Shown piece by piece: positions 6,811-37,559 of a stretch of 64,000 bases of DNA. A program made the translations under genes and the position numbers. Source of the stretch: a virus; the IMG/VR virus record IMGVR_UViG_3300033463_000089, positions 1 to 64,000 of that record. The stretch is one strand, 5' to 3'. Under the pieces are notes generated by a model that was given only the letters and a program-made list of their open reading frames with translations, had not been told where the DNA came from and did not search any database. Each line of letters begins with the position of its first letter. The first letter of the stretch is position 1.

Positions 6811-6869
6811 CAACACATTTTTAGATATTGCTAAATAAGCTTAATTACTCAATAAGGCAAAATCTACTA

Positions 6870-6911
6870 TCCGAGACGAGGAAAACCACAGACCGCAAAA
6901 ACCTATCTTTG
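6870..6911 (+). promoter_or_regulatory. Late-type promoter 2 (portal operon)
   Basis: TCCGAGACGAGGAAAA (6870-6885), an 18-nt spacer, then TATCTTTG (6904-6911). ATG lies 22 nt downstream. Confidence 0.6.
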
Positions 6912-6933
6912 CCCGCATAAATACAGAACTTAT

Positions 6934-12956: not shown

Positions 12957-12991
12957 ACAGGCTAACTCAAAACAACTAACATCATAAAGTT

Positions 12992-13588: not shown

Positions 13589-13599
13589 CAATCTGACCT

Positions 13600-14376: not shown

Positions 14377-14381
14377 ATATC

Positions 14382-17913: not shown

Positions 17914-18104
17914 AAAAGCGGGGAAAAGAAAAATCCCCCGACTTTCATTCATAATGTAGCACCACCCACTTTACAAACGATTGCCACGTAGCAGCACGTC
18001 GGGGGAGATAAGTCCCGTTAAGCTGTTACGCGGCATTGTCGTCGTTATGGATGGTGCGGGTGCAAAGGTAATGAATTAAATCGAATCAACCAAAATTTGC
18101 ACTT

Positions 18105-18347
18105 ATGAAAGTGGTCGAAATCTTGAAATTAGGTAGAAATTGGCTGGAATTGCTGCAAGATTCCTGCATTAAAGTCACCGATGTGCGTTTCCTGGATATG
18201 TACGAAGAGTATCTTTCCATGACTGACGAAGGACTAAAGATGTCGTATATCTCCGCCTGCCTCTCAGAGAAGTTCCGTATCTCTGAGCGTCAGTTCTTCT
18301 ATCTCATCAAACGTCTCTCGCAGGACTGCAAAATCGTTGCAGTGTGA
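18105..18347 (+). CDS. Small HTH protein, Mor-like transcription activator candidate
   Basis: 80 aa. The C-terminal KFRISERQFFYLIKRL resembles the Mor/C-family HTH (..SERQIYRII..). Confidence 0.4.
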   Translation: MKVVEILKLGRNWLELLQDSCIKVTDVRFLDMYEEYLSMTDEGLKMSYISACLSEKFRISERQFFYLIKRLSQDCKIVAV

Positions 18348-18384
18348 ATTTCCCGTTTGTTGCCTCACCTTTGTTTCTATTGCC

Positions 18385-18392
18385 TATCTTTG
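18385..18392 (+). promoter_or_regulatory. Bacteroidota-type -7 box TATCTTTG
   Basis: Matches TAnnTTTG. TTTG elements lie upstream (18356-18359 and 18370-18373). Precedes the gene at 18453. Confidence 0.5.
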
Positions 18393-18452
18393 CCCCTGTC
18401 AATGCGCATGGCAAGGTAACTTATTTATTCACTCTCTAACACAAGAACAATT

Positions 18453-18998
18453 ATGGCATTAGACATGAACGATTTGGCTGCTTTGAAGAGTATGGGAATG
18501 TCGCCCTACGAGCAGTTCAAGACACAGCACATGCAGGCTAAGTCTCACACCTCCGGCATCGGAGTTACAGGACTTGTAACGGGTATCGTCGGCACGGTAG
18601 CAGGCGTGACGGCATGGATTTTCGCCCCGTTGTATAGCAACGCCAAGGCTTCGCAGGCCAAGGAAGCTGCCATCGCCGCCAAGGAGATTGCCGCTATCCA
18701 GAACGGTGCTACCCAGCGTCAACTCGACCAGCTCACTTCTCTGTTTGCAGCCGAGCGTCAGGAGCGTATCAACGGCGACATCACGCTTAACGCTACCATC
18801 AACGACTCTGTAAGCGGTTCTCAGCAGGGACAGCTTACCGCTACACAGCAGGCAGAACTCGCCGCCTCGCAGGTGGCTACGCAGACCGTTATGACAGGCT
18901 TGATGACAGGCAAGTATTCTGAGAACCCTCAGAAGGTTGCGCTCTATCGTGACGCCCAGCCTTGCAACTGCCCCAATAGTTGCGGCTGCATGGGTTAA
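18453..18998 (+). CDS. Single-pass membrane protein with Cys-rich C-terminus
   Basis: 181 aa. Hydrophobic segment GIGVTGLVTGIVGTVAGVTAWIFAPL, a coiled-coil middle and the terminus QPCNCPNSCGCMG. A -7 box lies at 18385-18392. Confidence 0.5.
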   Translation: MALDMNDLAALKSMGMSPYEQFKTQHMQAKSHTSGIGVTGLVTGIVGTVAGVTAWIFAPLYSNAKASQAKEAAIAAKEIAAIQNGATQRQLDQLTSLFAAERQERINGDITLNATINDSVSGSQQGQLTATQQAELAASQVATQTVMTGLMTGKYSENPQKVALYRDAQPCNCPNSCGCMG

Positions 18999-24400: not shown

Positions 24401-27400
24401 TGTCTGTATTCCTAATGTCGCGCAGGGAGTCTCTGACGAACAACACGCGGTTGCGCTCCAAACCATGTTTCTTAATCATGTAGAGCTGCAGGTTTTTCAA
24501 CTGCTCATCAACGCCCTTACCCATATCAGGAAGGATGGCGGCTACGGCCTTATCCAAAGGCTCCATATAGTCACGGTTGAAGAGGAAGTCAAGCTGCTCT
24601 TCCTTGCTCGACATTTGGTTTTCCAACAACACAAAGTTTTCTGCTGACGGAATATCTTCTATCTTCTTTACACCACTGATTGAGCGCATCAACTCTATAG
24701 CGCTTTGCATAGCGTCGATATGCGCCTCTTTCCATACATATCCTATGCGCTTCAATGAACGCTCATAGTTCCTGCGCTGGTTCTTGACGGATGGGGTGTG
24801 TCTGAACAAAGTCTTTCCGCTACCGGGGAAGTATGGCACATAACTCTCCGTGTTGTCGGCAGCACCTTCACTATCATAGGCAAACTCGCCATTCTTCACC
24901 TTGGCTTCGTATTTCTCCTGTCCGAGTTTGTATAGCAAAGCTTCGCGCTCAATCTGATTCATGACATTGCCCTTTTCAAGATTGTGCTTACTCAGCCACA
25001 CCATATACTTAACGTCTGATATACTCGGACTCATGGTGAAGCCTACACTTCTCAAAGCATCGGTCATAACGTTCTTCACCTTCTGCCACATCGACAAATC
25101 GCCGTAGCCCTTTTCTGCTGCATCAGCAAGGAACTCGTCAATAGTGCGGTATGTATCGAAACCGTTCTTGGCAAGGTTCTCTTCCATGTACTTGCTTAAC
25201 TCTTCGTTCTTCAAGTCAAAGAGCAAAGAGCGCATATAACTCTTATACGCCTTCTCTCCAAGCAATTCACGGAAACCATAATGTCCTATAGTCTCGTGGG
25301 CAATAGTCTTCTCTGCATCGTAGGTATCTTTGACGTGAGGAAGATACAGGTAAATCTTCTTCTTGCCATCCTCACCAATCTCTACCCAACCGGGAACTTC
25401 TTTGCCAGCCGCGATAGCGTCCTTGACATCCTTATTCTTAATCTGGTCGGGAGAGGTAATAGCCTCAAAGTCAACATTCAGCTTCTTGGCAAGCTTTCGT
25501 CCTGCCTCTTCCTTTCGACGGAAATCAGCGTCAATAGTATTCTCGCTGCCACGGCTACGCATACGGGTTTCTGTTTCTTCGACATCTTCGAGCATGAAGC
25601 CGTCTTTTCCGTAAACATCACCCTTGTATTGTTCGTTATACTTGGCGTTGGCGTCAATAACGACAACGGAGCCATCTTTCTGCTCTACAATATTCCCATG
25701 ATGGGTATCTTTGACATAATACTTTTCGTTTCCAAACTCCAACCCGTCGCCGTAAATGTCGGACATACCCCTTTCTTCAAAGTATTGTTCAACCTTCTTG
25801 TCGATGCCATTCTGGAAATACTCTTCCATACTATACTGCTTGCCTTGGATAAAAGGCTGCTCGACAACAACATTAAACCTACCTTCCTTGTCACGGGAGA
25901 ATCCGACAACCTTATAAGCTGATTCAGGGAAAAGCTTATTAAAGACTTCGATATTTCTTAAAGCCTTTAATAAACCGCCATCGTTACGCTGGTATGGGTC
26001 GTTGAATTTTGTGATAGTCTTTCCGTCGGGCGAGAGATAAACACGGCTCTCACCACCCTTGGTAAGCATCTTTCCGTCGTAGGAAGATTTGGCAAACTCG
26101 TCCTCTTCCTTCCAATAGCCGGATGCCTTAGCCCAGTCTTCTACGGATTTTTCTATCTGCGCTCTTACAGGTTTGTCTGCATCATGCTCCGCGCGAATTG
26201 AAGCTGCTGCTGGAACTCCTCCCTTGTCTGCGGATATGATTTCTGCACCGATATGCGCCGCTGTAAGGCCTGTGCGCCCGCTTTCCGTATCTTCTCGTCC
26301 AAGGCGTGCTCGCCCGGAAACGACTCTTGATGCAAGTTCGTTGACTGTCTCATTGTACTGCTCTCCTTCTTTTTGGGGCAAAGATAAGAATAAATCCTCA
26401 GACTTCTCGTCTTTGCGCTCGTTATTTAACTTTTGTTCGGTTTTCTCTCGCTTGCGGAATCTTGTTGTCGGCTTATCCTCCAACTGCATGGTCTCGGCAT
26501 TGAACTCCTTGCCACTCTCGCGGTCAAAATCATACTCTACCTTCTGGTCGGGGTGTTCCTCGTTCCAATCGTCGATAACCTTTCTCGCCTCACGATCGCT
26601 CATGATACGATTAGCCTTGAAAGCACCGGCAACATACCAACCGATACGGTCGGCCTGCGAAGCTTCCTTGTTGGCATTGGTTGCCTTCATGTAGAAACCA
26701 TCCTCGGGGATATGTGTCGGTATGTCCTTGTCGGGATTCATGTTGGCCTCGTTCTGATAGTTCTTGTCGGCAGGCACTTCGCCCTCAACCCAAACAAATT
26801 TGTCATCACGAAGGTTTCTGTCCCTACCCTTGCCTATCTGACGCATGGAAGGTAATGAGCCGGCGTGCCAACCTGGGCGCATAGCGAACTCGCCAACTTG
26901 ACCACTTCCATTGATACCAATGTTCATATACTTGCGGTTCTCGCCCTCATATCTGCGCTGACCTCTCTCGGTGGCTGATATTCTCACAAAACGCTGCCCG
27001 TTGGCGGCTGCTTCGTTAATCATGTCAACAGACGGGTTCTTTCCAACCTTAACGCCTTTCTCTTTTGCATACTCTTCCAGCGTCTTATAAGTTCCATTGG
27101 CATAATCGACAATGAAAGTACCCTCCGGCATCTTCTTCAAGATGCTCATGTCGGGACTATCTGCATCGTACCACTTACCCAACTCCGTGGGATTTGCTGA
27201 ATCAATAAACAGAGGATAAAGCTTGCCGTCTTCCCCTAATCTCATCAGCTTATAGACCTTCTGTGTCTTCTTTGGCTCTTCTTTCTCTCTCAGACGGAAA
27301 CGGGTGGTAGTTCCCGGCTCCTGCGTCGTACCATTCAGACTGTCAGCAAACTTTCTTGCATCTTCCTCGGTCTTGAAGTGGAAAGCTTTCTTGAATCGGT

Positions 27401-30400
27401 TATAGTAACCGTCATACGCCTTTGCTCTACGCTCTACGGCGCGGTAGTCGTTATCGCTCAATCTTGCGCCATTGTAGCTAACAAGGTGCATATCATCGCC
27501 AGTACGGGTGTTCTTGTCAAGCTTATACTGATAGTCGCTCTTAGGCTGTGCCCCTCTTTGCGCAATATCTCTTATCTGCTCAACGACGGTTGATGTCCGA
27601 GCATTTACGGGCTCATTCAAATCTAACTTCTCGCCAGTCTGCCAATCAATACCTGCATTTCTGAGGATATTCTTTGAGCGCTCCGACAGTCTGAAATCAT
27701 TGCTGTGTGCGGCAACAATATTCATTCTGATACCATCCTCAGTTAGACTTGAATTGTTCGGATTCTCTCTGACTGCTGTTTCGGCAATAGTATTAATGCG
27801 CTCTCTCTTCTCTTGACGAATACGCTCGGTCTCGGCTTCTCGCTCTTGTATCCTGCGCCTGGTCTCCTCGTCACGCTCGCGTACCATCCTATCCATTTGG
27901 TCGGCGGTAACGCCCATCACGTTCTCCAGAGTCTTAATAGCTTGCTGGCAATAATCCTTGATAGCATCAATGGCAGGAATCTTGTCTTTTCCTCTGCCAT
28001 ACGTCTTATTATTGTATTTTCCGTATTCAAGCTCTTCAGGATTCTCCATCGTCTGTTTGAGGTTCTTATACCAGATAAGAGCGCTCTGCATACTCGGATT
28101 GTTGAGGTCGAGGCGTATTTCTGCCACATCATAGCGAGACCTACTGCGTACAACCAACAAATCGCCATAGATATTGAAATCGCTTGTAAACGGGTTGCTC
28201 TCCAGAGCTTTTTTAGTTTTCAGCGCCTTCTTTGTATTAATAGCCACTTGGTCAATGGTTCGCTCTGGCATACGGACAGTTCTCAACTGCTCGAACATAT
28301 CCTCCACGGTCTTGGCGTTGCTAATATCAAACGTAACCTTTTGCGGAGCTTTCCTCCTCATTTCCTCTCTCGATACTTTATCAATAACAAGTATGCGAGT
28401 CCGAACGCTTGTTCCTGCTCTTCCAAATGCGACATCAGGAAGTTTTACCTCGCCAATTACTACGGCAGAACCATTTACTCCGTCATAGCCGGTTGAGGCA
28501 AGCCAAGCGTCAACACGTTTTTCTGTTGCTGGGCCGTCTGGGATGATAGCAATCAGTCGGCCACCCTCATTAAGATGCTTAAATGCTTTGCCAACGTGTT
28601 CCATGGCAGTCTTGCCACCAACGCCATACGGCGGGTTCATCAGAATAGCATCGTGCTTATTCTGCAAAGGATAGTCCTCAAATGTCTTTTCTTCAAACTT
28701 TCTGCCGGGGCCGCCAGCTCGCATCTGCAAGCGAGAGAACAAAGCAGCACTTGGCTCTACGGCAGTCAAGGGGTTCGTCTCAGGCACATATCTCGCAATG
28801 GCTCCATGACCGGCACTCGGCTCCAAAACGCTTTCTTCGTCAAGAAGCTGTGCCCATTCCACCATCTTCCAACCTATAGGCTCAGGTGTCGGGAAGTAGT
28901 CAACACCCTCGCGGTTATCACGGCCTCTCTTCATCTTCTGATTGCCGTAGTAATCACTAATAGCGACATCGAAGCCGTCTTTCACACCTCGGCTGGCGAC
29001 CTGTCCGTCCATATCTTTACCACCAAATCCCTGACGCTCGTAGTCTATCTCGCCACTGTTCTCCAATACGGCATTGGCAATACTCTGGCGCAGGTTTCTT
29101 GCCTTGCTTCCAAGGGCAAGATTCTCGGTGGTTCCTAAAGCACTATTAAACTTCTGTGCAAACAGACTGGTTTCAAGATCAAGGCCAAGGAGAGGATACT
29201 CAAAGACGGCGTTACTCTTCTGACCTATTCTATATATACGACCTTCTATCTGAATAAATGCAATAGGACTCTGAGGTAAAGCAAGGTTGATTTCCACTCT
29301 CTGATGCTCACCGGTTTGGTCGTGCAAAGAGATACCTTCCTTACCGCTGGCTTCTTGAATGACGATAATATCTTTACCGCCATTATCTTTCATAAAGTCC
29401 TCTACGCTTGTATGCTTAGTCTTTTTGTTTTCAGCACCAGAGAAGAATCCTATGTTCTTCTCACCGAACACCTTTGCTATCTGGTCTCTTGGGAGGGTAT
29501 AGTCCAGCGTTTGCTCCCACTGCAACATATCCTTAAAGTCTGTCTCGAAGGCATGAATAGCAGAAAGAAGCTCCGATTTCTTATGCTGGTCTTGCATAGC
29601 CTCGGCCTCTATTCTTGCCATTGTCAATGCTCTTTCAAACGGTGGCTCCAAATCTCCGCTGGTTCTTCTGCGATGGAACACAACCACTTTCTGCCCTCTC
29701 TTCAAATGCTCTTTGATGCGGTCAATGACAAGCGAGGTTTTCATGGCCTCAAACAGAGCCGTTGAATAGTTGTAATCAAACGCCTTGCGGAATGTCTCTG
29801 CAAGAGGCTGATACTTCTTGTTGCGATACACCTCGCTCATGGCCTGGTTAAATCGGCCTGCATGGTCAAGAGTTAATACGGGGAAGTCTCTTGAATAGTC
29901 CCATTCGGAGTCAATCATGCGACCACTCATGGTCTGTAGATTGTTCTGCAAGTAGTCAGAGAAATCTATCTCCTGCCTACCAAGTGCTTCTTGGTTACTG
30001 ATGTGACTCTCCAAACGTCCGTATCTCCAACGATAACCGCCTGGGAATGTCTGCTCCAAGAAAGCTTCCTCGGGTGAGCGATGATTGTATGTACCGATAG
30101 TTTCTTTGTCTTCCTCGGGATAGCTGAAAATATAACCCTCTGCGTACTTCAAATTTTCGCGGGTATTGAACGGTGTTGCAGAAAGGAACACGGTTTTTGT
30201 TACCTTAGAATCTATCTCTGCCTGTGCTCGTTTACTCTCACGAATAGGCTGCTGCTCAGCAGGAATCTCTGCCAGACGCTGCTGCACCTCCAACTGACGT
30301 TTGTTGAGGCGGTCTTTCAGGGCCTCATCTTCTTTTGAAAGATAATCCTTGTCGTCAAGTTCTTCTATCTTGGCGGCATTTTCCTCAAACTCTTTTCTAA

Positions 30401-33400
30401 GATTGCGCTGCTCTACCCACAACGGCAGGTAGTACGTCTGACGATCAATAGACTTCTCTACATCTTTGTTGGTGAGCATCTGGTGAAACTTGAACATCTC
30501 ACCTTCTGCAGCCTCCTTACCTTCCGTAATCTTATGACTCTCGTCATAGATAACAAGGTCAAAGCAATCTTCCAACAAAGCAAGGTTCTGACGAGCGTTC
30601 GCATAGGTTGTAACAACAACACCCTTGCCTTTGGCTTTTGTGGCCGAAGTTCCGGCTGCTTTTGCGGCAGTGTCAAGATCTTCGATGTTTAGGCCAAGAT
30701 TCAAACCATCCTTTTTCCAGTCTGACACCTTCTCCTGACTCGGCGTAAGGATAAGTACTCTACCCTTTCCCTGCTTTACAAAACGCTTGGCAATTCCAAG
30801 GCCGGTATATGTCTTACCCGTACCCGTGCCATTGGTAAACATATATCCCTTTCCGTTGCCGTGCTCGCGGTCTTGGTGAGTCTCGTCAAAGAACTGCGTC
30901 TCAGACCTAAGCACGTCTTCGTGCTGCTCTGGCAAAAGATACGGTAATGTCTCGCGGATATTATCAACATCTCCGGTCTTGACTTCGATACTTTCGGCAG
31001 CCTTCTGCTTCTCAAACTTAGTGCCCAAGTCCTCGCGGACAACCTCTCTCAGCTTCTCTTCACCGATAAAAGATGCCCACTCGCGGATGGTGCGTGTAAC
31101 TCCGTCTATATTATATTCGCAATTCCATACTTCATTAAGGTATTCATCTATTTCTGCATCGCTCCATTTCATATCCTCCTGGAGCCAGTCGTGGAAGTCT
31201 TCAAGCATCTGCTTGCGCCAACCATCAAACTCACGAATACCTTTGACAAGATACTGATAACCGAGGTTGGCACTCTCAGTGGTAATATCCATGAGAATAC
31301 CAATCTGCTCGTTATTCATGCCGACAAGGGAGATAGTTGATTCTCCGTTGCGGCCTGCTTTCTTGAAACGTTCTCTTAGCTCTGCGAGTCGCTGCTTGCT
31401 GGCTGCGATGGCGGCATCACTTCCTGCTGCAAGCTTTTGAGTATTTCCGTCGCTTCGTCCACTTCCTCTGGACTTACCCAGTTGATTTCCCTCGACACCA
31501 GGTCGCACGCCTCCTCCGGCCAGTACACCTCCGGAAGAAAGCCCAGCCAATTCGGATGACGATTCAGAAACTCCGCTATCGCCTCCCTCTCCAGATATAC
31601 CGGGTAAGCGTCCCTCACTATTCTCCACACGTTGCTGTGTGGGTTGCTCTTGTCTTTCTCCAATGCCTGCACCTTCGGTTTCAACCACGCTGCTATCTGG
31701 TCCTCCAGCTCGTCCAGGTCGTCGCCCTGCAGAATCCTCTCCGCTATCCAACTGTGTTCCACGTTCGGGTAGCTGGCCATTTCCCTCAATTCTTTCTCTG
31801 GTAGTTCTAACATCGTTATAAGTGTTTAAGTATGCTGCTTTTTGTAATACGCCTTGGTTCCCGTTGAGGTAAGCCTTGGCGAGTGTCTTTTGCACATCAG
31901 AGACGGATGAACCATCTATCTCGTCAATGGTAAGCGGCGTGTCTGCAAACGCATCGGCCTGCTCCTTGTCTGCCATCTGCTGAGGTGTCTCGTTGTGGGT
32001 AACGCCGATGGCCTCGTCCTGCTCCTTTCTGAACTCCGTTGCCGTTTCATCTATCTTTTTCATTGGGTCTACCTCGGCTTTCTCTGAGAACTTTTTCATC
32101 GCCTCTCTTGCAGCCTCGGCATTTTCTTTGGGAATAGTCCAGCCTTTTCCGGACTCCCATTCGCCACCCATTTTTTTGAACTCGTTGTAAAGGTCTGTAT
32201 AATCGTCAGAAGTGACCTTACCATCTTGGATAACATTCTCATCCGTGATAGTTATCGAGCCATTCTTGTTCTCTTTTACAGAGAAGATGTTTGGTTTTTC
32301 TTCGCCGGTATCGAAACTCGTCTGCTTACGCTCGTTATCCAAAGCACCGCGAACACGGCTGTCATGCTCTTCTTGCGATTTCAGCCTTTCAAGCCTCTGC
32401 TCTGCATCTGCTACGGCATCGCGCTCTGCCTTGGTTCGCTTTTCAACTCCCTCTGCAGAAGTGTCGAGACCCATTTCTTCGGAAGAGAAGATTTGGTCTT
32501 CACTCTCAAAGGCCTTGTCGTTGGCAAACATATCGGTGGCCCGCTCACTCTCTTTGTTCTGAGCCTTTGCAAGCGCACTCTTTGCTTGTCTTACCTCTTC
32601 CTCGGCAGCTTTGACTTCCTCGGCAAGCTTCGCTTCAACGTCGGAAACAATCTTTTCTTCCTTCTCGTTGCGTGGCTTTAGGTATTCGTCTCGCTCTGAG
32701 GATTCGGATTCTCGGCTTGATTCAGCACGTCCTTCACCTTGGCCATCATTGCCTCTTTCTGCGCTTTCTTGGCCAGGTTCTTTTCCTTCACCATCTGCGG
32801 GAACTCGCGCATGCTCCATATCTTGCGCTTCGTCCCGTCTTTCTCCGTTACTTCTATCATTGATATAATCCTTTATTGTTTGTACTCTCTTTCTCAGCTC
32901 TTCGGGAGTTAGGTCGCCGGAGTAAACGGTAATCTTGCCGGTTTCTTCATCGAAGAACACTCCCTCTTCAAGAGCATATCGCTTTACAGCTTCTATTTCT
33001 TCTTCTCCGATAAAGGCTCCGTCGTTGGCTTTTTCAGCAAGTTCTCTCCAAGTGTCTGCCGATACTCTGTCTGTATCAACAATCTTAATCTCTGGAGTAC
33101 CTTCTTCTTTCATCAAAGCCTCTGCTTCTTTGAGTAGCTTGGTGATGGGCGCGTCGGGAATATCTTCGTCTGTAGACTGAGCAAACGGCATTTCTTCTTC
33201 AATCTTTGCCACCTCTTCTGCTGACAGTTCTATTCTCTCGTTGCGCTCTGCCTCTTCCTTTAGTCTGGCTTGCTCGGCTTCCCATGCCTTCTGTGCTTTT
33301 TCGACGCGGTTGCGAAGAACATATTCGGTAATATCTTTTCCGCTTTCTGCTGACAAGAAGAGGTCGATGATTGCGTCGCCGATTTGCCGCTCGTCGAATC

Positions 33401-36400
33401 GCTTTCTATCTTCACCGTCTAAACCGTGAATAGTGTTCTCGTCGCTACGCCATACCTTATCAACAAACTCGTCGAAGCCCATGCCGGTGGTATCATCCTT
33501 ACCTTTGAAAAGATGTGCAAAGGCGTGGCCCTCGCTACCTCTTCTTCCACCAAACTCGGTATTGATACCTAACGCAGTCTTGAAGCCTCTGATGACGCCT
33601 CCAGCTCCATTTGGCTTGTCTTCCCAACTGAATTGTCTGCCAGTTCCAATGTTCAATGCAACAAGTTCTGTGGCATCGCCAGGAACATCTATATCATCAT
33701 TGAACGAAGGGCCGTACTTCTTCTTGTATCGTTCTACAAGCTGCTGCAGGCGTGACTTCAAAGAAGGCTTCTTTTCGGCCTCCGGCTGCTCACTTGCAAC
33801 CTTTGGTTGCAAAGGTACAACATTTTGAGGTTCGTTGTTCTCTACAGGCGCAACATTTAAGTTAGTTTCAGGCTTGTTTGCTTTCTCTAACTCTTTCTTG
33901 GCAGAAGTCCAATAGTCCACCTTCTGCTGTGCCTCAGCTTTCTGTGCGTCTATATTGTCCTGCTCTTTGGCTCTCTTAATGGGGTCGCTGCTCTTCGGTG
34001 TCAGCTTCTCTGCGGCCTTAACATCTTTCTCTGAGGCCTTAATCTTAGCGTCGACGGCATCAATCACGCGCTTCTTGTCGCCGTGATTAATCTCGTCCAA
34101 TGCGGATAATGTATCTTCTACGGGTGCTTGCTCCCACTGGTACTGAGGGTCGCCCTCTTCGTTAAGAACGTCCGCACCTTGTTCGTCTTTCAAGGTGGGT
34201 ATCTTGGAAATAGCAGTCTCTTGTTCTGGCACTACAGCACCTTCTTCTTGCCCTGGAGCCGGTTGCAAAACCTCATTTGTATTCTGTTCGCTTTCGCCCT
34301 GCTTTTCTTCTTCGGGGTTGACAAGGCCAGCTTCTACAGCTGTGTTGGAAGATTCCACCTGCAACTGCTCACGCACTCTGTTTGCGTACTCTTCTTTTGC
34401 CTCACGGCCTGCAATTGACATGGTGGCATCTGGCTTGGTAGGTAAAAATCGTCCATCCTTTGCTCTGAGGATAATCTGACCGCTTGACTTATCCGGGTCT
34501 ACACTTACTCCGTCTCGCGTACCTATATTACCATTCACAAGGATAAAGTTCTCTCCGTCTTTTGTAATGGTAATAATGTTTGCCTGGTCTGCTTCCTCGT
34601 CAATAGTTCCATGGAAAGACTTCTCGGTTACGTCTTGGGAAACCTGCTCGTCGATGTTCGCGCCGGTCTGTTCAATGTAACCGTCTTTCTTGGCTTTTGC
34701 ATTAGCATAGTCAGCCAGCTTTTCAAGGAAGTTGTCAACCTCCGGCCCGCTAAAGTTGTCGCGGATATACATATATATATCGTCCAGACGTGCGGATTCG
34801 CCAAGGGCTTCAAGTGCTTGTTGAATTTCCTCACTACGGGAGGCTGAGAGATAAGCATCGCGTGCGGCGTTATACTCTTGTGCCACCTGTGCAGCAGTCT
34901 CGGGATTCATAACACCACTACCGCCTGCAAGTGTTTCTCCGTCAATTCTTGATTGCTCGGTGTGCTTTTCACCTACGGGATAGGCGGCATCGTGAAGACG
35001 CTTTGCAAGCTCATTCATAAGGTCTTGTTCATCGTCTACACGTTCAATGGGTTTCTTGTGCATGATGTCGAGAACTTCCTCTACCGTCATATTGCACTCG
35101 TTAGCAAACTCAGCCACTATCTCGTTACCCCAATTTGCTTTCTCTCTTGCTCGGTCAAGAACAATATCGTAGCTCTTACCACCCGGCTCTACGTCTTGCG
35201 GACGAAGGCCCGGATTTACCTGCAGAAGTTCTTGTGCCGACTGACGAATCATTTCTTCGGTCGGGTCTGATACCTTAATCTTACTCAGTACACCATAGTC
35301 AGAAATCATATCATCGTTAGCGCGACGATCTTCAATCTGCTGGCGAATCTGCATGAGTTCGTTGACATCAGAATACTTGTGTACCTCTATCAATTCTCCC
35401 GTAGCAGAACGCTCGCTAATGGTCTTGTCTGTGCCGTTAATATTGATGTCCTTGGTACGAGGGCGGCTTGACTCACAGGCATTTTGCACCTGTGCAGACA
35501 CCTTCATGCGAGTAGTCCAAGGTATGTTTTGTCTATCAGACAGAATCTTGCCTACATTGTTAATATCCGATGCTATCTCTGCGAAATCCATACCGGCGAA
35601 AGCACGCTGTATAGATTCCCTATCCATATCATTGAGTTGTATAGGCGCGTTCTTCGACTGCTTAACGGAGAATATATCTTTCAGTTCGCGTCCTACGCCT
35701 TTAAGTCCGTGGCCGGACGAGAACTTAGAACCTATCTGCATATAGAAAGCGTCTGCTGCACTATCTACCCAATTAAAATTCTCTGGGTCAGATATATAGT
35801 CCAGGCCGGTGAAAATCTGGTTCTCCACCAAGAATGAACCACCATAGAAAGCCGCCTTTTTACCGATATTCTTCTGTCCTACCGTTCCTATCCTGCCTCC
35901 TAATTCATGTGCAGCTACGCCAAATGCACCAGTGGCAAAACCGAACTTAGCACCTTCCCATGCTCCTTCAAGTGCAGCGTGACCGATTGACGAAAGTGTG
36001 CCATCGCCCGTTGACATTTCCTGCAAGGCACTTGAACCTCCCATGAATGTTGACATTGAGCCAGCACCTCTTAACATGGCATTGGTATAGATACCACCAT
36101 ATTTAACTACCTTGCTAACGTTTGCGGCAAGGAACGGGCTTCCCGTTGCAACTATATGGCCAAGTTCCTTCTGTCCCAAACTTGCTATGGCGGAACCTAT
36201 GGCTTTAGTACCAAACTCGCCTACCGTGCCGGTTACCATAAGAACAGGTGCATCTGGTGCGAACATAGCAACACTACCAGCCATTCTTGCACCAATACCG
36301 GCGTTATAATGCTTTCCTTTTCCTTCTTCCGTCTTAAATAGTTCCTCATTGCGCATCCTGCGCTCCATCTTTGACATGGTAGACATTCCTGCAAGTGTTC

Positions 36401-37559
36401 CTATTACGGAGTTGCTCATCTTGCGAGTAAGGTAGTCTGCCACGTCCTTGACAGAATACTTCTCTTCCATGTGCTTCTGGAATCCCTGCGCAATACCTTC
36501 GCTTACCTGCGGTATAAACTCCTGCCATACGAAGTCTTCTACAGGCATACCAAGACGTGCGGCACTTGCTTCTATCAAGTCTCTGTTTTGTTCTACAAGT
36601 CCGTTGGCAAAGTCCGTTGCCTCGCCAGTGCTATTGCCGAAGAAATCGGGTCTTGAATCAAGCTTTGCACCATAACGCTTGTTTAGTGCATCCAAAAGGC
36701 TTTCTGGGCTTGTGATACTAGAAGTCTTCGCCAATTCCGGCGACATAACATTAGTGTCGAGGTTCTTTCCTTCAAGGCCCTTTTTCAATATGTCACGACC
36801 TTGCTTTTCAAGTTCATCTTGAAGTCCAAGGATTGCACCATTTACTGCAGGGTTGATGGCCTGTTTCTGCAACTGCTTGCGGATAACCTCTCTTTCTTGT
36901 TGCTGATACTGCGCCACACGCTGCTCGTCAGTGGTCTGCCCCATCAGCATTTGCCCGCTTTCGTCTCTTACGGCGGTAGGTGCTGTCACGGGTGTATTGA
37001 CGATGTTTGCAAGCGGTTTTCCTGTAGCTTCGTAGTACTCGCGCTCTTGCTGCATACGCTGAACGGCAGTATCAAGACCGCTTTCCTTGGCGGCTTTCTT
37101 GTCGCCCTTGATGGCCTTATCTAACTGCTGAACGGTGTTTTTCTTTTGCTCAACGGCTTTACCTGTCTGCGGGTTAATGGGCTGGCCTTTTGCAGTACCC
37201 CACGACGAAGCACCTTTGCCCATAGCCATTTGGTTGGCCTGCTGCAAATCCAACTCACCGAAACCTTCCGGAATTGGCGAAGGCTTCTGTTGGGTAGCTT
37301 GTGGTTTCTGCTGAGGCTTCGCCGGTTGCTGTGGTTTGGTTGCGAAATCGGTGCTTATGCTACCGAAGAAATCGTCCTCGGAGCCTATCTCATTCTCGTC
37401 AAAGATACCGCTTTTGATTAGATTTTGATGGAATTGTCTTGATGATTTCTCATCTTTAATGGCATTCTTAAAGTCGTTAAGACTGCCGATCTGACTTTCA
37501 TCAACCTTTCCAGAACCAATAAGGTTGCGATACAACTGCTCTCTCTTATCTTGTGCCAT
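21498..37559 (-). CDS. Giant multi-domain 'polyvalent' protein (5,353 aa): helicase + N6-MTase + kinase-like + HExxH peptidase; DarB-like injected-cargo candidate
   Basis: Single uninterrupted ORF. Motifs read directly from the translation are listed in the sub-features. A late-type promoter lies at 38595-38636. Confidence 0.85.
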   Translation of the reverse strand: MAQDKREQLYRNLIGSGKVDESQIGSLNDFKNAIKDEKSSRQFHQNLIKSGIFDENEIGSEDDFFGSISTDFATKPQQPAKPQQKPQATQQKPSPIPEGFGELDLQQANQMAMGKGASSWGTAKGQPINPQTGKAVEQKKNTVQQLDKAIKGDKKAAKESGLDTAVQRMQQEREYYEATGKPLANIVNTPVTAPTAVRDESGQMLMGQTTDEQRVAQYQQQEREVIRKQLQKQAINPAVNGAILGLQDELEKQGRDILKKGLEGKNLDTNVMSPELAKTSSITSPESLLDALNKRYGAKLDSRPDFFGNSTGEATDFANGLVEQNRDLIEASAARLGMPVEDFVWQEFIPQVSEGIAQGFQKHMEEKYSVKDVADYLTRKMSNSVIGTLAGMSTMSKMERRMRNEELFKTEEGKGKHYNAGIGARMAGSVAMFAPDAPVLMVTGTVGEFGTKAIGSAIASLGQKELGHIVATGSPFLAANVSKVVKYGGIYTNAMLRGAGSMSTFMGGSSALQEMSTGDGTLSSIGHAALEGAWEGAKFGFATGAFGVAAHELGGRIGTVGQKNIGKKAAFYGGSFLVENQIFTGLDYISDPENFNWVDSAADAFYMQIGSKFSSGHGLKGVGRELKDIFSVKQSKNAPIQLNDMDRESIQRAFAGMDFAEIASDINNVGKILSDRQNIPWTTRMKVSAQVQNACESSRPRTKDININGTDKTISERSATGELIEVHKYSDVNELMQIRQQIEDRRANDDMISDYGVLSKIKVSDPTEEMIRQSAQELLQVNPGLRPQDVEPGGKSYDIVLDRAREKANWGNEIVAEFANECNMTVEEVLDIMHKKPIERVDDEQDLMNELAKRLHDAAYPVGEKHTEQSRIDGETLAGGSGVMNPETAAQVAQEYNAARDAYLSASRSEEIQQALEALGESARLDDIYMYIRDNFSGPEVDNFLEKLADYANAKAKKDGYIEQTGANIDEQVSQDVTEKSFHGTIDEEADQANIITITKDGENFILVNGNIGTRDGVSVDPDKSSGQIILRAKDGRFLPTKPDATMSIAGREAKEEYANRVREQLQVESSNTAVEAGLVNPEEEKQGESEQNTNEVLQPAPGQEEGAVVPEQETAISKIPTLKDEQGADVLNEEGDPQYQWEQAPVEDTLSALDEINHGDKKRVIDAVDAKIKASEKDVKAAEKLTPKSSDPIKRAKEQDNIDAQKAEAQQKVDYWTSAKKELEKANKPETNLNVAPVENNEPQNVVPLQPKVASEQPEAEKKPSLKSRLQQLVERYKKKYGPSFNDDIDVPGDATELVALNIGTGRQFSWEDKPNGAGGVIRGFKTALGINTEFGGRRGSEGHAFAHLFKGKDDTTGMGFDEFVDKVWRSDENTIHGLDGEDRKRFDERQIGDAIIDLFLSAESGKDITEYVLRNRVEKAQKAWEAEQARLKEEAERNERIELSAEEVAKIEEEMPFAQSTDEDIPDAPITKLLKEAEALMKEEGTPEIKIVDTDRVSADTWRELAEKANDGAFIGEEEIEAVKRYALEEGVFFDEETGKITVYSGDLTPEELRKRVQTIKDYINDRSNGERRDEAQDMEHARVPADGEGKEPGQESAERGNDGQGEGRAESSRESESSERDEYLKPRNEKEEKIVSDVEAKLAEEVKAAEEEVRQAKSALAKAQNKESERATDMFANDKAFESEDQIFSSEEMGLDTSAEGVEKRTKAERDAVADAEQRLERLKSQEEHDSRVRGALDNERKQTSFDTGEEKPNIFSVKENKNGSITITDENVIQDGKVTSDDYTDLYNEFKKMGGEWESGKGWTIPKENAEAAREAMKKFSEKAEVDPMKKIDETATEFRKEQDEAIGVTHNETPQQMADKEQADAFADTPLTIDEIDGSSVSDVQKTLAKAYLNGNQGVLQKAAYLNTYNDVRTTRERIEGNGQLPERGTQLDSGEDSAGRRPGRAGGPDSSVVETEGAGIGERQEQPTQQRVENSEGRLPGISGEGGDSGVSESSSELAGLSSGGVLAGGGVRPGVEGNQLGKSRGSGRSDGNTQKLAAGSDAAIAASKQRLAELRERFKKAGRNGESTISLVGMNNEQIGILMDITTESANLGYQYLVKGIREFDGWRKQMLEDFHDWLQEDMKWSDAEIDEYLNEVWNCEYNIDGVTRTIREWASFIGEEKLREVVREDLGTKFEKQKAAESIEVKTGDVDNIRETLPYLLPEQHEDVLRSETQFFDETHQDREHGNGKGYMFTNGTGTGKTYTGLGIAKRFVKQGKGRVLILTPSQEKVSDWKKDGLNLGLNIEDLDTAAKAAGTSATKAKGKGVVVTTYANARQNLALLEDCFDLVIYDESHKITEGKEAAEGEMFKFHQMLTNKDVEKSIDRQTYYLPLWVEQRNLRKEFEENAAKIEELDDKDYLSKEDEALKDRLNKRQLEVQQRLAEIPAEQQPIRESKRAQAEIDSKVTKTVFLSATPFNTRENLKYAEGYIFSYPEEDKETIGTYNHRSPEEAFLEQTFPGGYRWRYGRLESHISNQEALGRQEIDFSDYLQNNLQTMSGRMIDSEWDYSRDFPVLTLDHAGRFNQAMSEVYRNKKYQPLAETFRKAFDYNYSTALFEAMKTSLVIDRIKEHLKRGQKVVVFHRRRTSGDLEPPFERALTMARIEAEAMQDQHKKSELLSAIHAFETDFKDMLQWEQTLDYTLPRDQIAKVFGEKNIGFFSGAENKKTKHTSVEDFMKDNGGKDIIVIQEASGKEGISLHDQTGEHQRVEINLALPQSPIAFIQIEGRIYRIGQKSNAVFEYPLLGLDLETSLFAQKFNSALGTTENLALGSKARNLRQSIANAVLENSGEIDYERQGFGGKDMDGQVASRGVKDGFDVAISDYYGNQKMKRGRDNREGVDYFPTPEPIGWKMVEWAQLLDEESVLEPSAGHGAIARYVPETNPLTAVEPSAALFSRLQMRAGGPGRKFEEKTFEDYPLQNKHDAILMNPPYGVGGKTAMEHVGKAFKHLNEGGRLIAIIPDGPATEKRVDAWLASTGYDGVNGSAVVIGEVKLPDVAFGRAGTSVRTRILVIDKVSREEMRRKAPQKVTFDISNAKTVEDMFEQLRTVRMPERTIDQVAINTKKALKTKKALESNPFTSDFNIYGDLLVVRSRSRYDVAEIRLDLNNPSMQSALIWYKNLKQTMENPEELEYGKYNNKTYGRGKDKIPAIDAIKDYCQQAIKTLENVMGVTADQMDRMVRERDEETRRRIQEREAETERIRQEKRERINTIAETAVRENPNNSSLTEDGIRMNIVAAHSNDFRLSERSKNILRNAGIDWQTGEKLDLNEPVNARTSTVVEQIRDIAQRGAQPKSDYQYKLDKNTRTGDDMHLVSYNGARLSDNDYRAVERRAKAYDGYYNRFKKAFHFKTEEDARKFADSLNGTTQEPGTTTRFRLREKEEPKKTQKVYKLMRLGEDGKLYPLFIDSANPTELGKWYDADSPDMSILKKMPEGTFIVDYANGTYKTLEEYAKEKGVKVGKNPSVDMINEAAANGQRFVRISATERGQRRYEGENRKYMNIGINGSGQVGEFAMRPGWHAGSLPSMRQIGKGRDRNLRDDKFVWVEGEVPADKNYQNEANMNPDKDIPTHIPEDGFYMKATNANKEASQADRIGWYVAGAFKANRIMSDREARKVIDDWNEEHPDQKVEYDFDRESGKEFNAETMQLEDKPTTRFRKREKTEQKLNNERKDEKSEDLFLSLPQKEGEQYNETVNELASRVVSGRARLGREDTESGRTGLTAAHIGAEIISADKGGVPAAASIRAEHDADKPVRAQIEKSVEDWAKASGYWKEEDEFAKSSYDGKMLTKGGESRVYLSPDGKTITKFNDPYQRNDGGLLKALRNIEVFNKLFPESAYKVVGFSRDKEGRFNVVVEQPFIQGKQYSMEEYFQNGIDKKVEQYFEERGMSDIYGDGLEFGNEKYYVKDTHHGNIVEQKDGSVVVIDANAKYNEQYKGDVYGKDGFMLEDVEETETRMRSRGSENTIDADFRRKEEAGRKLAKKLNVDFEAITSPDQIKNKDVKDAIAAGKEVPGWVEIGEDGKKKIYLYLPHVKDTYDAEKTIAHETIGHYGFRELLGEKAYKSYMRSLLFDLKNEELSKYMEENLAKNGFDTYRTIDEFLADAAEKGYGDLSMWQKVKNVMTDALRSVGFTMSPSISDVKYMVWLSKHNLEKGNVMNQIEREALLYKLGQEKYEAKVKNGEFAYDSEGAADNTESYVPYFPGSGKTLFRHTPSVKNQRRNYERSLKRIGYVWKEAHIDAMQSAIELMRSISGVKKIEDIPSAENFVLLENQMSSKEEQLDFLFNRDYMEPLDKAVAAILPDMGKGVDEQLKNLQLYMIKKHGLERNRVLFVRDSLRDIRNTDKTKADQLEQDYLVTMNDLRDELRRGDIDLREYFEEVDNWIKHNLPEYKVGDKDYSGLTDLYGVWDQTVDSDAIDEVMSIESMLGDARVKNLWDKTKAVSQFGLDTEYEGGIDSKEKHDKVSQMFEWYVPLRGYNEKTAEEVYDYLEEHGSDRKWAGPVLMNAKGRESLADIDVFAALGAMSSNAINRALRNQMKQAFARFVRNHYNEVEADNRLVTELSYLWAEKQYNPAGNEIWVEKFPDIPEGAKADDIAQIIEQYNQDMKTKQAAGDAKRVRQNSNIPFRPADREHKAQHIVDVWINGEKHSFIINGSPRAAQAINGQLKAERRGNFAYMSSIKNVIAKLATSYNPDFIISNAERDAIFSASAIGIKESSKYFAQWVVNYFGRGFGRVAAGVPLMKTNLFNRYKKGELNMSNPTDRYFSEFMKNGGETGWVESKNIDKWKKLVKENVNTIRNRVTKEDWQSLKSGKLTASDVGRKLVRGGKDIFDLLPHAIEVMNERAENMARFATYMTSRQMGRSITRSVSDAKEVSVNFNRKGAGYKTRDVNKDGSVLQRMNALVAARTAQYGQDYIMFYNAGVQGLNNAAKLFRDHTIKASTVFTGFALGAFIMSWINQGLIDSEDEDKRGGIKNPYAELPEYIRRNNLCLYIGKGQFLYCALPIELRAMYGIGDMAAGYTEYPDLKSEKPVWKDVTTQLTQILPIDFMGEHPGNPLVNFTPSAARPILEIGFNENYYGRPIEKENYGNDSKPRHTRAYRSVNKAYMSLAKKWNAATNDYSEEKLKKLGVDEEMISEADYNQKGLDGWLTDPSIAQHIVESYFAGLGKTAGNLAHVYRMIKEDNSTLRDVVSSDKTPILRKFHYSPTEQNKQARTRNKWYYYKDQLQDFKTQMNSLKEFGAKDPIAKMKEISIADSIKATKMEIMSDSLKAYNKQKKICDDPKKTESQKEAAQMRMDQIMENTVRGLDKIQ
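25200..25397 (-). other. Giant ORF segment: HExxH zinc-metallopeptidase-like motif (aa ~4055-4120)
   Basis: TIAHETIGHYGFRE, with HETIGH at 25281-25298. Confidence 0.5.
25605..26066 (-). other. Giant ORF segment: protein-kinase-like fold (aa ~3832-3985)
   Basis: GGESRVYLSPDGKTITKF (Gly-loop/Lys-like), then YVKDTHHGNIV (25692-25709, catalytic-loop-like D..N) and VVIDAN (DFG-like). Confidence 0.5.
28380..28922 (-). other. Giant ORF segment: N6-adenine-type DNA methyltransferase (aa ~2880-3060)
   Basis: Motif I VLEPSAGHGAIA (~28800-28830) and motif IV NPPY (28626-28637). Confidence 0.75.
29160..30962 (-). other. Giant ORF segment: SF2 (SNF2/DExH-like) helicase (aa ~2200-2800)
   Basis: Walker A GTGTGKT (30810-30830), Walker B DESH (30534-30545) and motif VI QIEGRIYRIGQ (29220-29252). 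Confidence 0.8.
31376..31813 (-). CDS. Candidate overprinted ORF (145 aa, +1 frame inside the giant ORF)
   Basis: ATG 31811-31813, stop 31376-31378. The product is acidic, Trp-rich and globular-looking. The giant frame is low-complexity exactly over this span. See findings. Confidence 0.3.
   Translation of the reverse strand: MLELPEKELREMASYPNVEHSWIAERILQGDDLDELEDQIAAWLKPKVQALEKDKSNPHSNVWRIVRDAYPVYLEREAIAEFLNRHPNWLGFLPEVYWPEEACDLVSREINWVSPEEVDEATEILKSLQQEVMPPSQPASSDSQS
35805..36413 (-). other. Giant ORF segment: Gly/Ala-rich hydrophobic region (aa ~383-585)
   Basis: GIGARMAGSVAMFAPDAPVLMVTGTVGEFG...GAGSMSTFMGGSS...GFATGAFGVAAHELGG. Glycine-zipper-like, as in membrane-inserting ejection or tape-measure segments. 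Confidence 0.5.

Follow-up and report, generated by a model that had tools for sequence, protein, structure and literature searches.

Bacteriophage lambda Rz1 is a lipoprotein of about 60 residues encoded by a gene nested in the +1 frame of Rz (about 150 codons); it has its own start, and the two products cooperate. In Bacillus subtilis, the 46-codon comS lies out of frame within the surfactin synthetase gene srfAB, on the same transcript, and encodes a regulatory peptide with a narrow taxonomic range and a function unrelated to that of the host protein. In the annotation of phage P1, the Dar system comprises DarB and the accessory proteins Ulx, DdrA, DdrB, Hdf and DarA, with the accessory genes separate and non-overlapping. 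The DarB-like gp69 of JC1 is present in virions, and homologues of Ulx, Ddr and Hdf are not known in other DarB-like phages (PMC9144972). A review and a further study of overprinted viral pairs describe a structured protein that dominates selection and a disordered product in the other frame, the disordered member usually being the embedded, younger ORF (PMC8227390; PMC9119678).

The locus described here lies in a 64,000-nucleotide stretch of viral DNA (positions 1 to 64,000 of IMG/VR record IMGVR_UViG_3300033463_000089), hereafter the window. The virus is a temperate phage whose host is probably in the Bacteroidota, and close relatives of the locus were found in Bacteroidota genomes. A giant ORF of 5353 codons wholly contains, on the same strand and in the +1 frame relative to it, a smaller ORF, X, whose acidic product (pI 4.4) is all-alpha (Table 1). 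An earlier note on this DNA, made from the letters alone, had claimed this 145-codon ORF, and its coordinates, frame and strand were all exact. The arrangement resembles that of Rz1 in that X lies entirely within a phage gene, on its strand but in its +1 frame, and would use its own internal start. However, X has no homology to Rz1, its product of about 145 residues looks like a cytoplasmic helical globule, the overlap is confined to a presumably disordered linker of a host gene of 3,700-5,400 codons, and its partnership with the host protein is putative. As with comS, a small independent ORF lies out of frame within a giant multidomain gene; X is, however, three times longer, predicted to fold, and conserved across phyla together with the host module.

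The host gene belongs to the DarB-like anti-restriction class. Pfam matches were found to ResIII (1.7e-12), AAA_34, Kinase-PolyVal (1e-24) and LPD38 (2.6e-28), and the helicase part matches coding sequences of cultured phages annotated as "DarB-like antirestriction". Anti-restriction activity and packaging into virions would follow by analogy with JC1 gp69. A giant helicase/methylase with a small protein encoded alongside recalls the P1 Dar system. A search with the X HMM over the P1 ulx-darB region, ulx included and in all frames, gave no significant match; DarB proper thus does not share the nested gene. With helicase, kinase and LPD domains on one giant polypeptide, and a methylase (MTS) match below cutoff (20.4 bits against the Pfam cutoff of 23 bits), the host gene fits the polyvalent proteins of phages and conjugative elements, as judged by ResIII, Kinase-PolyVal and LPD38 (Iyer et al. 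2017, PMC5512222). X itself is not among the Pfam LPD domains, and the words "overlapping", "frameshift", "linker" and "disordered" are absent from the text of that paper. A literature search found no paper describing the X ORF.

Table 1 Features of the X locus and its host gene (positions are those of the window).
Feature	Position	Strand	Basis
Host gene: 5353-codon polyvalent, DarB-like protein	21498..37559	(-)	ORF, Pfam and CDS matches
Nested gene X: ATG ORF, 145 codons plus TAA (ATG 31813-31811; TAA 31378-31376)	31376..31813	(-)	ORF list and translation
Conserved giant-frame segment immediately preceding X, TPLTIDEIDG…AKAYLNGNQGVLQKAAYLNTYN	31815..31940	(-)	Alignment, 7 lineages
Putative X translation-initiation region, A/T-rich unstructured leader (…caaaaagcagcatacttaaacacttataacg ATG)	31814..31850	(-)	Relatives, folding energy
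Giant-frame overlap product: G/S/E/R-rich, aromatic-free, poorly conserved linker, presumed disordered	31431..31810	(-)	Translation, composition
Constraint hand-over zone; giant-frame conserved segment AAGSDAAIAASKQRLAEL starts	31379..31430	(-)	Conserved in both frames
Module directly downstream of X: helical N-terminal region, then start of ResIII/DarB-like helicase	30513..31376	(-)	Giant frame, conserved

The giant frame over X encodes 146 residues, including 30 Gly, 18 Ser, 15 Glu and 15 Arg, with Phe, Tyr, Trp, Met, Cys and His absent, in agreement with the low-complexity G/S/E/R translation noticed earlier. The segment had also been described as GC-richer than its flanks, and its GC content is 0.55 in the X ORF, above the 0.47 of the giant gene as a whole and the 0.42-0.49 of the flanks. 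The giant-frame segment immediately upstream shows 61% identity and a normal divergence by codon position (0.28/0.19/0.53) in the alignment of seven lineages, and its final codons provide the leader and the ATG of X. The downstream module, with the Pfam ResIII match at 30513-30896, is likewise normal (0.29/0.22/0.55-0.58). At the hand-over zone X reads a C-terminal tail, QQEVMPPSQPASSDSQS, that is predicted to be disordered, and there both frames are conserved among closer relatives.

Related loci were gathered by helicase-alignment motif scans (A5) and by alignment scans (A2) of metagenomes; the A2 alignment scan over genome contigs returned no loci. The earlier note had named frame-specific conservation as a check, and the +1 frame proved to be kept directly upstream of the helicase module in 69 of 69 IMG/VR loci and in all 23 bacterial-genome loci possessing upstream sequence, the latter spanning Bacteroidota, Proteobacteria, Pectinatus and Acidobacteriota. 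X is also present in six cultured phages (Parlo, Skulduggery, ZX1, 45A6, 1.232.O and D274), for which the annotation shows the giant CDS alone. Clustering at 85% identity gave 38 lineages with a median pairwise X identity of 25%. The idea that both frames are protected from stops held across this set: over the overlap neither the X frame nor the giant frame contains a stop in any of the 38, whereas the third sense frame has a mean of 13.2 stops and is open in none, a comparison that dispels the doubt left by the window alone. The lineages are phylogenetically related, and the counts are therefore not independent trials. The antisense frames over X have means of 1.6-3.4 stops, and two antisense ORFs on the plus strand (31556-31804 and 31639-31821) were treated as by-products because such frames are open in merely 3-11 of the 38 lineages.

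Searches of GenBank phages and PLSDB plasmids, with the region by blastn and with the X protein of the window by tblastn, gave nothing significant, and it took metagenome protein searches and profile-guided locus scans to find any relatives of X. Five separate metagenome protein calls resemble the window X at 44-69% identity. The X HMM search recovered 76 cluster representatives (39 at E<1e-10), the majority of which are 120-155 residues long and align from residue 1. On fragmented contigs the X frame was chosen by gene callers in independent calls.

The hand counts that had suggested protection from stops in the window were exact on recount. The four TA-initiated codons of X are TAC, TAC, TAT and TAC, the seven TG-initiated codons are six TGG and one TGC, and none of the 12 codons ending in T is followed by AA, AG or GA. 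The stop-free run over X, 149 codons, is the longest of 265 +1-frame runs in the giant gene, the second longest being 100. Under a geometric model (264 stops in 5353 codons) the probability of one such run anywhere in the gene is about 0.14; because of this value the openness in the window alone is only suggestive, as the earlier note had judged. Synonymous-codon permutation of the window gave stronger evidence, with P < 0.0005 for an open +1 frame with the giant protein fixed and P = 0.012 for an open giant frame with the X protein fixed. In nine lineages permuted in the same way, the former probability was at most 0.006 in eight, the exception being L001 (0.20), and the latter was 0.0015-0.10 in eight, the exception being L008 (0.56). 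These two lineages are individually weak, L001 for the openness of X and L008 for that of the giant frame.

The pattern of divergence changes within the overlap. In the flanks, divergence at the three giant-frame codon positions is 0.28-0.30, 0.19-0.22 and 0.53-0.58, whereas in the overlap core it is 0.48, 0.37 and 0.33 in the giant frame and 0.39, 0.31 and 0.49 in the X frame, so that giant-frame codon position 1 is the most variable position. Identity in the core is 0.38 in the giant frame versus 0.49 in the X frame, and the X frame is the more conserved in 616 of 703 lineage pairs. The codon-position signature thus switches to the X frame and points to purifying selection on the embedded ORF. 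As to which frame is ancestral, synonymous codon usage did not discriminate overall, with the better score falling to the X frame in 16 of 32 lineages (Wilcoxon p=0.22); X looks more native in most high-GC, strongly biased genomes, clearly so in L102, L103, L105, L090, L098 and L100.

A few loci serve as natural controls. Free-standing X homologues have 15-42 stops in their other frames; the frame equivalent to the giant frame contains 15 stops in L006/L007 (P0001, 69% identity) and 42 in L031/L032 (P0041), and hence that frame is not open by composition. In a few contigs (P0027/L024, P0076 and the C-terminus of P0001) X is in frame with downstream giant sequence, which indicates either that X may be linked covalently in certain contexts or that these contigs contain indel errors.

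The start of X is marked in several ways, and the search for internal-initiation signals proposed in the earlier note returned a conserved ATG together with either a Shine-Dalgarno motif or an unstructured A/T-rich leader. Position 1 of the X profile is ATG in 68 of the 69 IMG/VR loci and GTG in the other, and it is ATG in at least 20 of the 23 genome loci. A stop in the X frame lies 3-5 codons upstream of the ATG in 41 of the 69 viral loci and within 12 codons in 57. The leader sequence is conserved among relatives. In the window, the region from -30 to +30 has a folding energy of -1.4 kcal/mol, whereas surrounding windows average -11.9 (99th percentile), and the AT content of the leader is at the 89th percentile; across lineages the start is, at the median, less structured than 96% of neighbouring windows, with an AT content at the 95th percentile. 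Genes of the window lack Shine-Dalgarno motifs. Several lineages have one before X, including all four cultured proteobacterial phages inspected: GAGG, AGGA or AAGGAG occurs 7-9 nt upstream in Parlo, Skulduggery, 1.232.O, 45A6, L097, L099 and L100. The Bacteroidetes-type promoter motif TAnnTTTG is absent from the 490 nt upstream of X, and Rfam gave no match at E<=1 over 30800-32400.

The expectation of an ordinary globular product was borne out by structure prediction. With an input of six sequences, AF2 modelled X confidently as a seven-helix globule (pLDDT 87.8, pTM 0.82); pLDDT drops from about residue 129 and is below 50 at residues 139-145. A Foldseek search of the model against the PDB gave a best E-value of 1.7 with TM-scores below 0.35, and the search against BFVD found no relative. 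Pfam has no family for X and gave no consistent match among 53 members, PHROGs gave no match, PADLOC gave nothing below E=0.01, and a sequence profile search of the PDB gave nothing below E=0.3. Pfam analysis of the longer fused members (P0041, P0019, P0027, P0076 and P0069) gave nothing above cutoff. Most lineages encode an X with a pI of 4.1-5.2 and a net charge of about -12 to -17, whereas the pI is 9.26 in Vibrio phage 1.232.O.

That the +1 ORF arose by chance or from the composition of a GC- and purine-rich linker, conserved as a side effect of the giant frame, is scarcely credible. Purine-rich linkers do deplete stops in some frames, and in the window alone a gene of this size would contain such an open run about 1 time in 7. 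However, the giant frame is the less conserved of the two in the overlap, where the codon-position pattern tracks X, and X stays open in every lineage down to 10-25% identity, in homologous loci drawn from many metagenomes, isolate genomes and cultured phages. Free-standing copies with the other frames closed, the confident globular fold and the conserved start codon with its Shine-Dalgarno or leader signals argue in the same direction. It is very improbable that X is instead the sole product, with the giant gene consisting of an upstream gene and a helicase gene that starts past X, and the frame-0 linker untranslated. On fragments, gene calls do give X plus a downstream gene beginning at an internal Met (MN(N/A)EQI…), and L010 and L024 lack the N-terminal half of the giant gene and have unrelated genes upstream of X. 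Yet over 120-160 codons the giant frame contains no stop in any of the 38 lineages, compared with about 13 in the third frame and 15-42 in free-standing copies; the permutations show that this openness is not forced by the X protein sequence, and no full-length locus has a stop ending the upstream half.

The earlier note had offered, as an alternative to an embedded protein, a domain reached by frameshifting. X would then be a trans-frame domain of the giant protein entered by a programmed +1 frameshift, with or without a return shift, and the products would be a fusion of the N-terminal half to X or an X-containing giant protein. Such a covalent connection has some precedent: P0001 ends in IDAEIAASKQRLVELMTKFKEA, the sequence of the giant-frame segment, so that X is covalently continuous there, P0027 and P0076 carry X in frame with the downstream domain, and T_TTA_AAA, in the phase of the giant frame, precedes the ATG by about 20 nt in some lineages. 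Frameshifting is nonetheless improbable and is disfavoured by the lack of a conserved slippery site, by the conserved ATG and by the X-frame stop close upstream. TTTAAAA is absent from the window (which has CTTAAAC) and from many lineages, and a -1 slip on it enters the stop-filled third frame rather than that of X; it was rejected as a general shift mechanism, being neither conserved nor in the right phase. The start codon is retained at position 1 in all 69 viral loci despite differing giant-frame residues (D/N then V/A), Shine-Dalgarno motifs at canonical spacing precede it in lineages that include the four cultured proteobacterial phages, and the upstream stops leave barely any room for a shift site. 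An open giant frame across the overlap, as found in all lineages, would be needless had ribosomes left it, and Rfam shows no frameshift element. Separate translation is also compatible with X being an independent anti-defence effector, such as an Ocr- or ArdA-like DNA mimic, merely parked in the giant gene, but this is unlikely. The acidity of most X proteins, the anti-restriction class of the host gene, the virion association of the JC1 DarB-like protein (PMC9144972) and the defence-like gene cluster that adjoins the fused homologue P0041 are all consistent with such an effector, and an anti-defence role is a reasonable guess, though from context alone. The DNA-mimic idea raised in the earlier note fared less well, as acidity is not universal (pI up to 9.3) and Foldseek found no resemblance to solved structures, known DNA mimics included. 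PADLOC was without match, and a link to the helicase module is favoured by the strict position of X, locked in frame at the edge of that module in more than 90 loci.

Dual-frame conservation, a predicted fold and start signals were all established computationally for X, which is very probably a genuine nested gene translated, as we infer, by internal initiation, and a probable partner of the helicase module. One mRNA would be read in two frames. Ribosomes in frame 0 would produce a flexible, weakly constrained G/S/E/R linker joining the N-terminal half to the helicase-methylase-kinase half, while others would initiate independently at the internal ATG within an unstructured A/U-rich patch or, in some lineages such as those of the proteobacterial phages, behind a Shine-Dalgarno motif, yielding a distinct acidic protein with seven helices and about 120-160 residues. 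Selection is partitioned between the frames, the overlap evolving mostly as X-coding sequence with the giant frame merely kept stop-free, and constraint is handed back to the giant frame at the disordered C-terminal tail of X. Such a segregation of constraint resembles that of the ordered/disordered viral overprints, but the usual roles appear reversed, the embedded ORF being ordered and the host gene providing the disordered frame.

Apart from rare free-standing or fused copies, X always occupies the 5' edge of the helicase module. Because of this strict location the likeliest role for X, at a weaker level of inference, is that of a partner bound non-covalently to the DarB-like helicase module, for example a regulator, an assembly or packaging factor, or an inhibitor, and nesting would secure the co-inheritance and co-expression of the two. 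A role equivalent to that of the accessory proteins Ulx, Ddr and Hdf in DarB-like phages is speculation. It is possible, if doubtful, that X is both an obligatory subunit of widespread DarB-like machines (a chaperone, packaging adaptor or helicase auto-inhibitor) and the older gene. The helicase gene would then have been joined to an upstream gene through translation across X in the -1 frame, a "frame bypass" that would have created the disordered linker de novo and was then locked in across phyla.

Intact in each related phage and prophage inspected, X is almost certainly real and probably represents a missing component of DarB-like systems. Giant DarB-like polyvalent proteins are encoded by some of the largest and least understood phage genes, and the conserved X was missed by every annotation inspected, including the RefSeq records of cultured phages. 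The locus exposes a failure mode of gene calling, in which pipelines either absorb X into the giant ORF or break the giant ORF at X. The overlap is unusually deep, with identity within the family falling to 10-25% and at least four bacterial phyla represented; this depth, the ordered-on-disordered arrangement and the free-standing and in-frame controls make X useful for studying how overlapping genes originate and share constraint. Tractable phage-host pairs are available with Serratia phage Parlo, Pseudomonas fluorescens SBW25 phage Skulduggery, Klebsiella phage ZX1 and Vibrio phages. Knock-outs, truncations or recoding of DarB-like giants would unknowingly alter X as well.

The +1 frame of the giant gene, a DarB-like polyvalent ORF on the minus strand, contains an ATG-initiated ORF whose putative product is termed X here. 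Translation of the +1 frame gives MLELPEKELREMASYPNVEHSWIAERILQGDDLDELEDQIAAWLKPKV…. The giant frame, read over the same DNA, gives a linker (…GEDSAGRRPGRAGGPDSSVVETEGAGIGERQ…) whose 146 residues include 30 Gly, 18 Ser, 15 Glu and 15 Arg, and no Phe, Tyr, Trp, Met, Cys or His. The X ORF is richer in GC than the entire giant gene (0.55 versus 0.47), the earlier note having remarked a GC content above that of the flanks, and the hand counts of codons avoiding stops in both frames were all exact on recount. The stop-free run at X, 149 codons, is the longest of 265 such +1-frame runs in the giant gene, and the runner-up has 100 codons. A geometric model with 264 stops in 5353 codons yields ~0.14 for one such run per gene; the evidence of the window by itself is modest, in agreement with its first assessment as suggestive only. 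Permutation of synonymous codons in the window provides sharper evidence than run length: with the giant protein fixed, the +1 frame was open in <1 of 2000 permutations, and with the X protein fixed, the giant frame was open in 1.2%. The next-longest alternative-frame open runs in the giant gene are located from 28219 downward (100 codons, +1), at 34906 (92 codons, +1) and at 36630 (94 codons, +2).

Coordinates of the giant gene, X, and related ORFs in other records.
Feature	Record	Position	Strand	Basis or remark
Giant ORF, 5353 codons	window	21498-37559	-	ORF call
X, 145-codon ATG ORF inside giant ORF, +1 frame	window	31376-31813	-	ORF call and translation
Unannotated X ORF, Klebsiella phage vB_KpnP_ZX1	MW722080.1	49373-49750		
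Unannotated X ORF, Serratia phage Parlo	NC_048758.1	53818-54204		
Unannotated X ORF, Pseudomonas phage Skulduggery	NC_070827.1	33577-33963		
Free-standing X gene P0001	L006	442-969		L006/L007 are ENA ERZ28653738 / ERZ28653751
P0041, free-standing, 353 residues (X at N-terminus and C-terminal domain without assignment), with adjoining gene cluster	L031 (Logan SRR25667322 contig)	233-10306		
Second overlap	L024 (GCA_965308125.1 contig CBDMBP010000105.1)	~2087-2625		

A protein search with the 145 residues of X identified five proteins with 44-69% identity, all on short metagenome contigs in which gene callers had picked the X frame. A profile search of 1.8 billion cluster representatives returned 76 members, of which 39 scored E<1e-10. 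Almost all members are 120-155 residues long with the alignment beginning at residue 1, and in the DNA around most of them the giant frame is present and uninterrupted across the small ORF. Loci were gathered independently of X with A5, an alignment of the conserved giant-frame helicase region just 3' of X. An X-family match was found in 69/69 IMG/VR loci (E 1e-6 to 1e-53), always in the +1 frame and directly upstream of the helicase region, with 0 giant-frame stops and 3-18 third-frame stops across each match. The same arrangement occurs in 23/23 bacterial genome loci with upstream sequence, from Bacteroidota, Proteobacteria (Acinetobacter, Methylotenera, Roseateles, Methylococcales), Pectinatus and an acidobacterium. 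X is also present in six cultured phages (Parlo, Skulduggery, vB_KpnP_ZX1, Ruegeria phage 45A6, and Vibrio phages 1.232.O and D274), and in all six records the giant CDS is the sole annotated feature under the X match. The X profile found no X in P1 darB. The giant CDS is named inconsistently among the ZX1, Parlo and Skulduggery records ('PLxRFG protein', 'DarB-like antirestriction', 'hypothetical protein', 'N-6 adenine-specific DNA methylase'). The locus is poorly served by public gene calls, which on fragments comprise X and a downstream gene begun at an internal Met (among loci L008, L010, L011, L012, L025, L028 and L030). At L028 (10001-10459 and surroundings) a 4822-codon ORF (4252-18717) is shown as scattered small calls, with a 5-kb stretch nearly devoid of gene calls inside it, and at L025 and L026 the acidic upstream region bears a spurious gene call on the opposite strand.

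Clustering of 84 X sequences at 85% identity defined 38 lineages, whose median pairwise identity is 25%. The X frame and the giant frame are each stop-free in 38/38 lineages; the third sense frame is open in 0/38, with a mean of 13.2 stops, and the antisense frames across X have means of 1.6-3.4 stops. Divergence of the giant frame at codon positions 1/2/3 is 0.28-0.30 / 0.19-0.22 / 0.53-0.58 in the flanks and 0.48 / 0.37 / 0.33 in the overlap core, where the corresponding values for the X frame are 0.39 / 0.31 / 0.49. The usual coding signature thus belongs to the giant frame in the flanks and to the X frame within the overlap, so that the frame-specific conservation across homologues that the earlier note had proposed to look for is borne out. 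Within the overlap core, X has an amino acid identity of 0.49 and the linker one of 0.38, and X is better conserved than the giant frame in 616/703 lineage pairs of the deep set. Free-standing X genes serve as controls. The copy in L006 and L007, two samples, has 69% identity to the X of the window and 15 stops in each alternative frame, and in L031/L032 X is fused to a different C-terminal region, and the giant-equivalent frame there contains 42 stops. Because these copies have such stops, the openness of the giant frame is not due to the composition of X; the frame is maintained free of stops only where a giant gene traverses X. The possibility that the +1 ORF is a chance or compositional by-product is excluded by the openness of both frames together with the occurrence of the family in every viral locus, genome locus and lineage, by a codon-position signature that follows X, and by the closed giant-equivalent frame of the free-standing controls. 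The alternative in which two genes flank a linker that is not translated is contradicted by the giant frame, which has 0 stops in every lineage.

The AlphaFold2 model of X, computed with six sequences as sole input, is a seven-helix globule (pLDDT 87.8, pTM 0.82), and this confident prediction agrees with the initial reading of X as globular. The tail is predicted to be disordered from residue ~129, and the conserved giant-frame segment AAGSDAAIAASKQRLAEL begins exactly there. Because the two coincide, order appears to be split between the products: ordered X overlies the disordered linker, and the disordered X tail then overlies ordered giant sequence. A Foldseek search with the model identified nothing in the PDB (best E 1.7) or BFVD (best E 0.98), and X has no match in Pfam, PHROGs, PADLOC or the PDB sequence profile. 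The nearly invariant residues are M1, H20, W43, R64, R67, E75, A78 and A102. Most members are acidic (pI 4.1-5.2), but the DNA-mimic role suggested in the earlier note is weakened by the pI of 9.3 of the Vibrio phage 1.232.O member.

The giant product has Pfam matches to ResIII helicase, Kinase-PolyVal and LPD38, with a methyltransferase match below threshold, and this content makes it a polyvalent protein as Iyer et al. 2017 (PMC5512222) define the class. Matches to the helicase part of the gene include cultured-phage CDSs named 'DarB-like antirestriction'. Since genes for a portal protein, a large terminase subunit and an integrase are also present, the window is from a temperate phage or prophage. 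No Shine-Dalgarno motif was found at any of 24 gene starts inspected in the window (for example 6934, 12992, 21498-37559 and 54052), and their leaders are A/T-rich. The closest relatives lie within genomes of Alistipes, Prevotella, Bacteroides, Parabacteroides and Muribaculaceae, with related prophages in the first three. Together, the lack of Shine-Dalgarno motifs and these relatives make a Bacteroidota host likely.

Position 1 of the X profile is ATG in 68/69 viral loci and GTG in one, and the ATG is retained even where the overlapping giant residues vary. An X-frame stop lies 3-5 codons 5' of the ATG in 41/69 viral loci and within 12 codons in 57/69. Across lineages, a median 96% of the 61-nt segments in the surrounding 2 kb are more structured than the one at the X start; the start region of the window's own X folds at -1.4 kcal/mol, compared with -11.9 on average. 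In A+T content, the 25 nt 5' of the start are at the 95th percentile. Initiation independent of Shine-Dalgarno motifs is expected in Bacteroidota, and the open, A+T-rich X leader fits it. Most lineages without such a leader (Parlo, 45A6, L099, L100) have GAGG, AGGA or AAGGAG 7-9 nt 5' of the start, and several have both an open leader and such a motif (Skulduggery, 1.232.O, L097). No Bacteroidetes-type promoter motif was found within 490 nt upstream of X, and no Rfam family at the X region. The simplest mechanism would be internal initiation on the mRNA of the giant gene. The alternative raised in the earlier note, that X is a domain of the giant protein reached by frameshifting, is disfavoured by these start signals, by the X-frame stop close upstream, by the giant frame being open throughout the overlap and by the absence of a conserved slippery site, a signal that the earlier note had proposed to look for along with those of internal initiation.

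Several loci depart from the common arrangement. X is continuous with downstream giant sequence in a few contigs (P0027, P0076 and the C-terminus of P0001), which represent genuine, rare fusions or else indel errors. P0001 retains ~40 nt of giant-gene-like sequence 5' of its ATG and has at its end the peptide IDAEIAASKQRLVELMTKFKEA of the giant frame, here encoded in the frame of X; given this leader and end, it looks like a piece excised from a giant gene that survived independently while the giant frame decayed. P0041, in a locus of 39% GC, adjoins an opposite-strand cluster of N6_N4 methyltransferase, DEAD/ResIII helicase, DndD-like, AAA_23 and FtsK/DUF87-like genes that looks like a defence island. 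At the second overlap, in L024, an acidic, helical-looking frame-2 ORF starting MKMTQECLEAMKEEAKQIGKW… at nt 2099 lies over a G/S/R/E-rich frame-1 ORF (1339-2625). It does not belong to the X family by HMM, and the overlap could represent either a further dual-coding linker or an assembly with a frameshift; the same contig repeats the segment DDVPASAMD.IPVDE.GEPLFEQA. Giant-frame homology in L010 (ENA ERZ27256784 k141_3112586, 1-709) begins only ~30 codons before X, preceded by opposite-strand genes, one with Exo_endo_phos_3; either the N-terminal half of the giant protein is wholly absent or the contig is chimeric.

X is frame-locked at the 5' edge of one clade of the DarB-like helicase module in >90 loci, and on this association it is most likely a partner of that module, as a regulator, an assembly/packaging factor or an inhibitor. 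Virions of phage JC1 contain DarB-like giant proteins, and no homologues of the small Dar accessory proteins of P1 are known in such phages (PMC9144972); by analogy, X is a candidate for a similar role. X could still be an independent anti-defence effector.

Same-strand nested genes are of a known kind, for example lambda Rz/Rz1 and comS within srfA, but none of these is homologous to X. Iyer et al. 2017 (PMC5512222) make no mention of overlaps or frameshifts in polyvalent proteins, and X was not found described in the literature covered on overlapping genes, polyvalent proteins and DarB, although this coverage was incomplete and an earlier description is possible. The arrangement is unusual in that the embedded product is ordered and the host frame disordered, and in its conservation, which spans no fewer than four bacterial phyla and extends to family identities as low as 10-25%. 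Codon usage as a test of the older frame favours X in most high-GC genomes and is mixed overall. Should X prove to be the older frame, the giant linker would have arisen by reading across a pre-existing gene.
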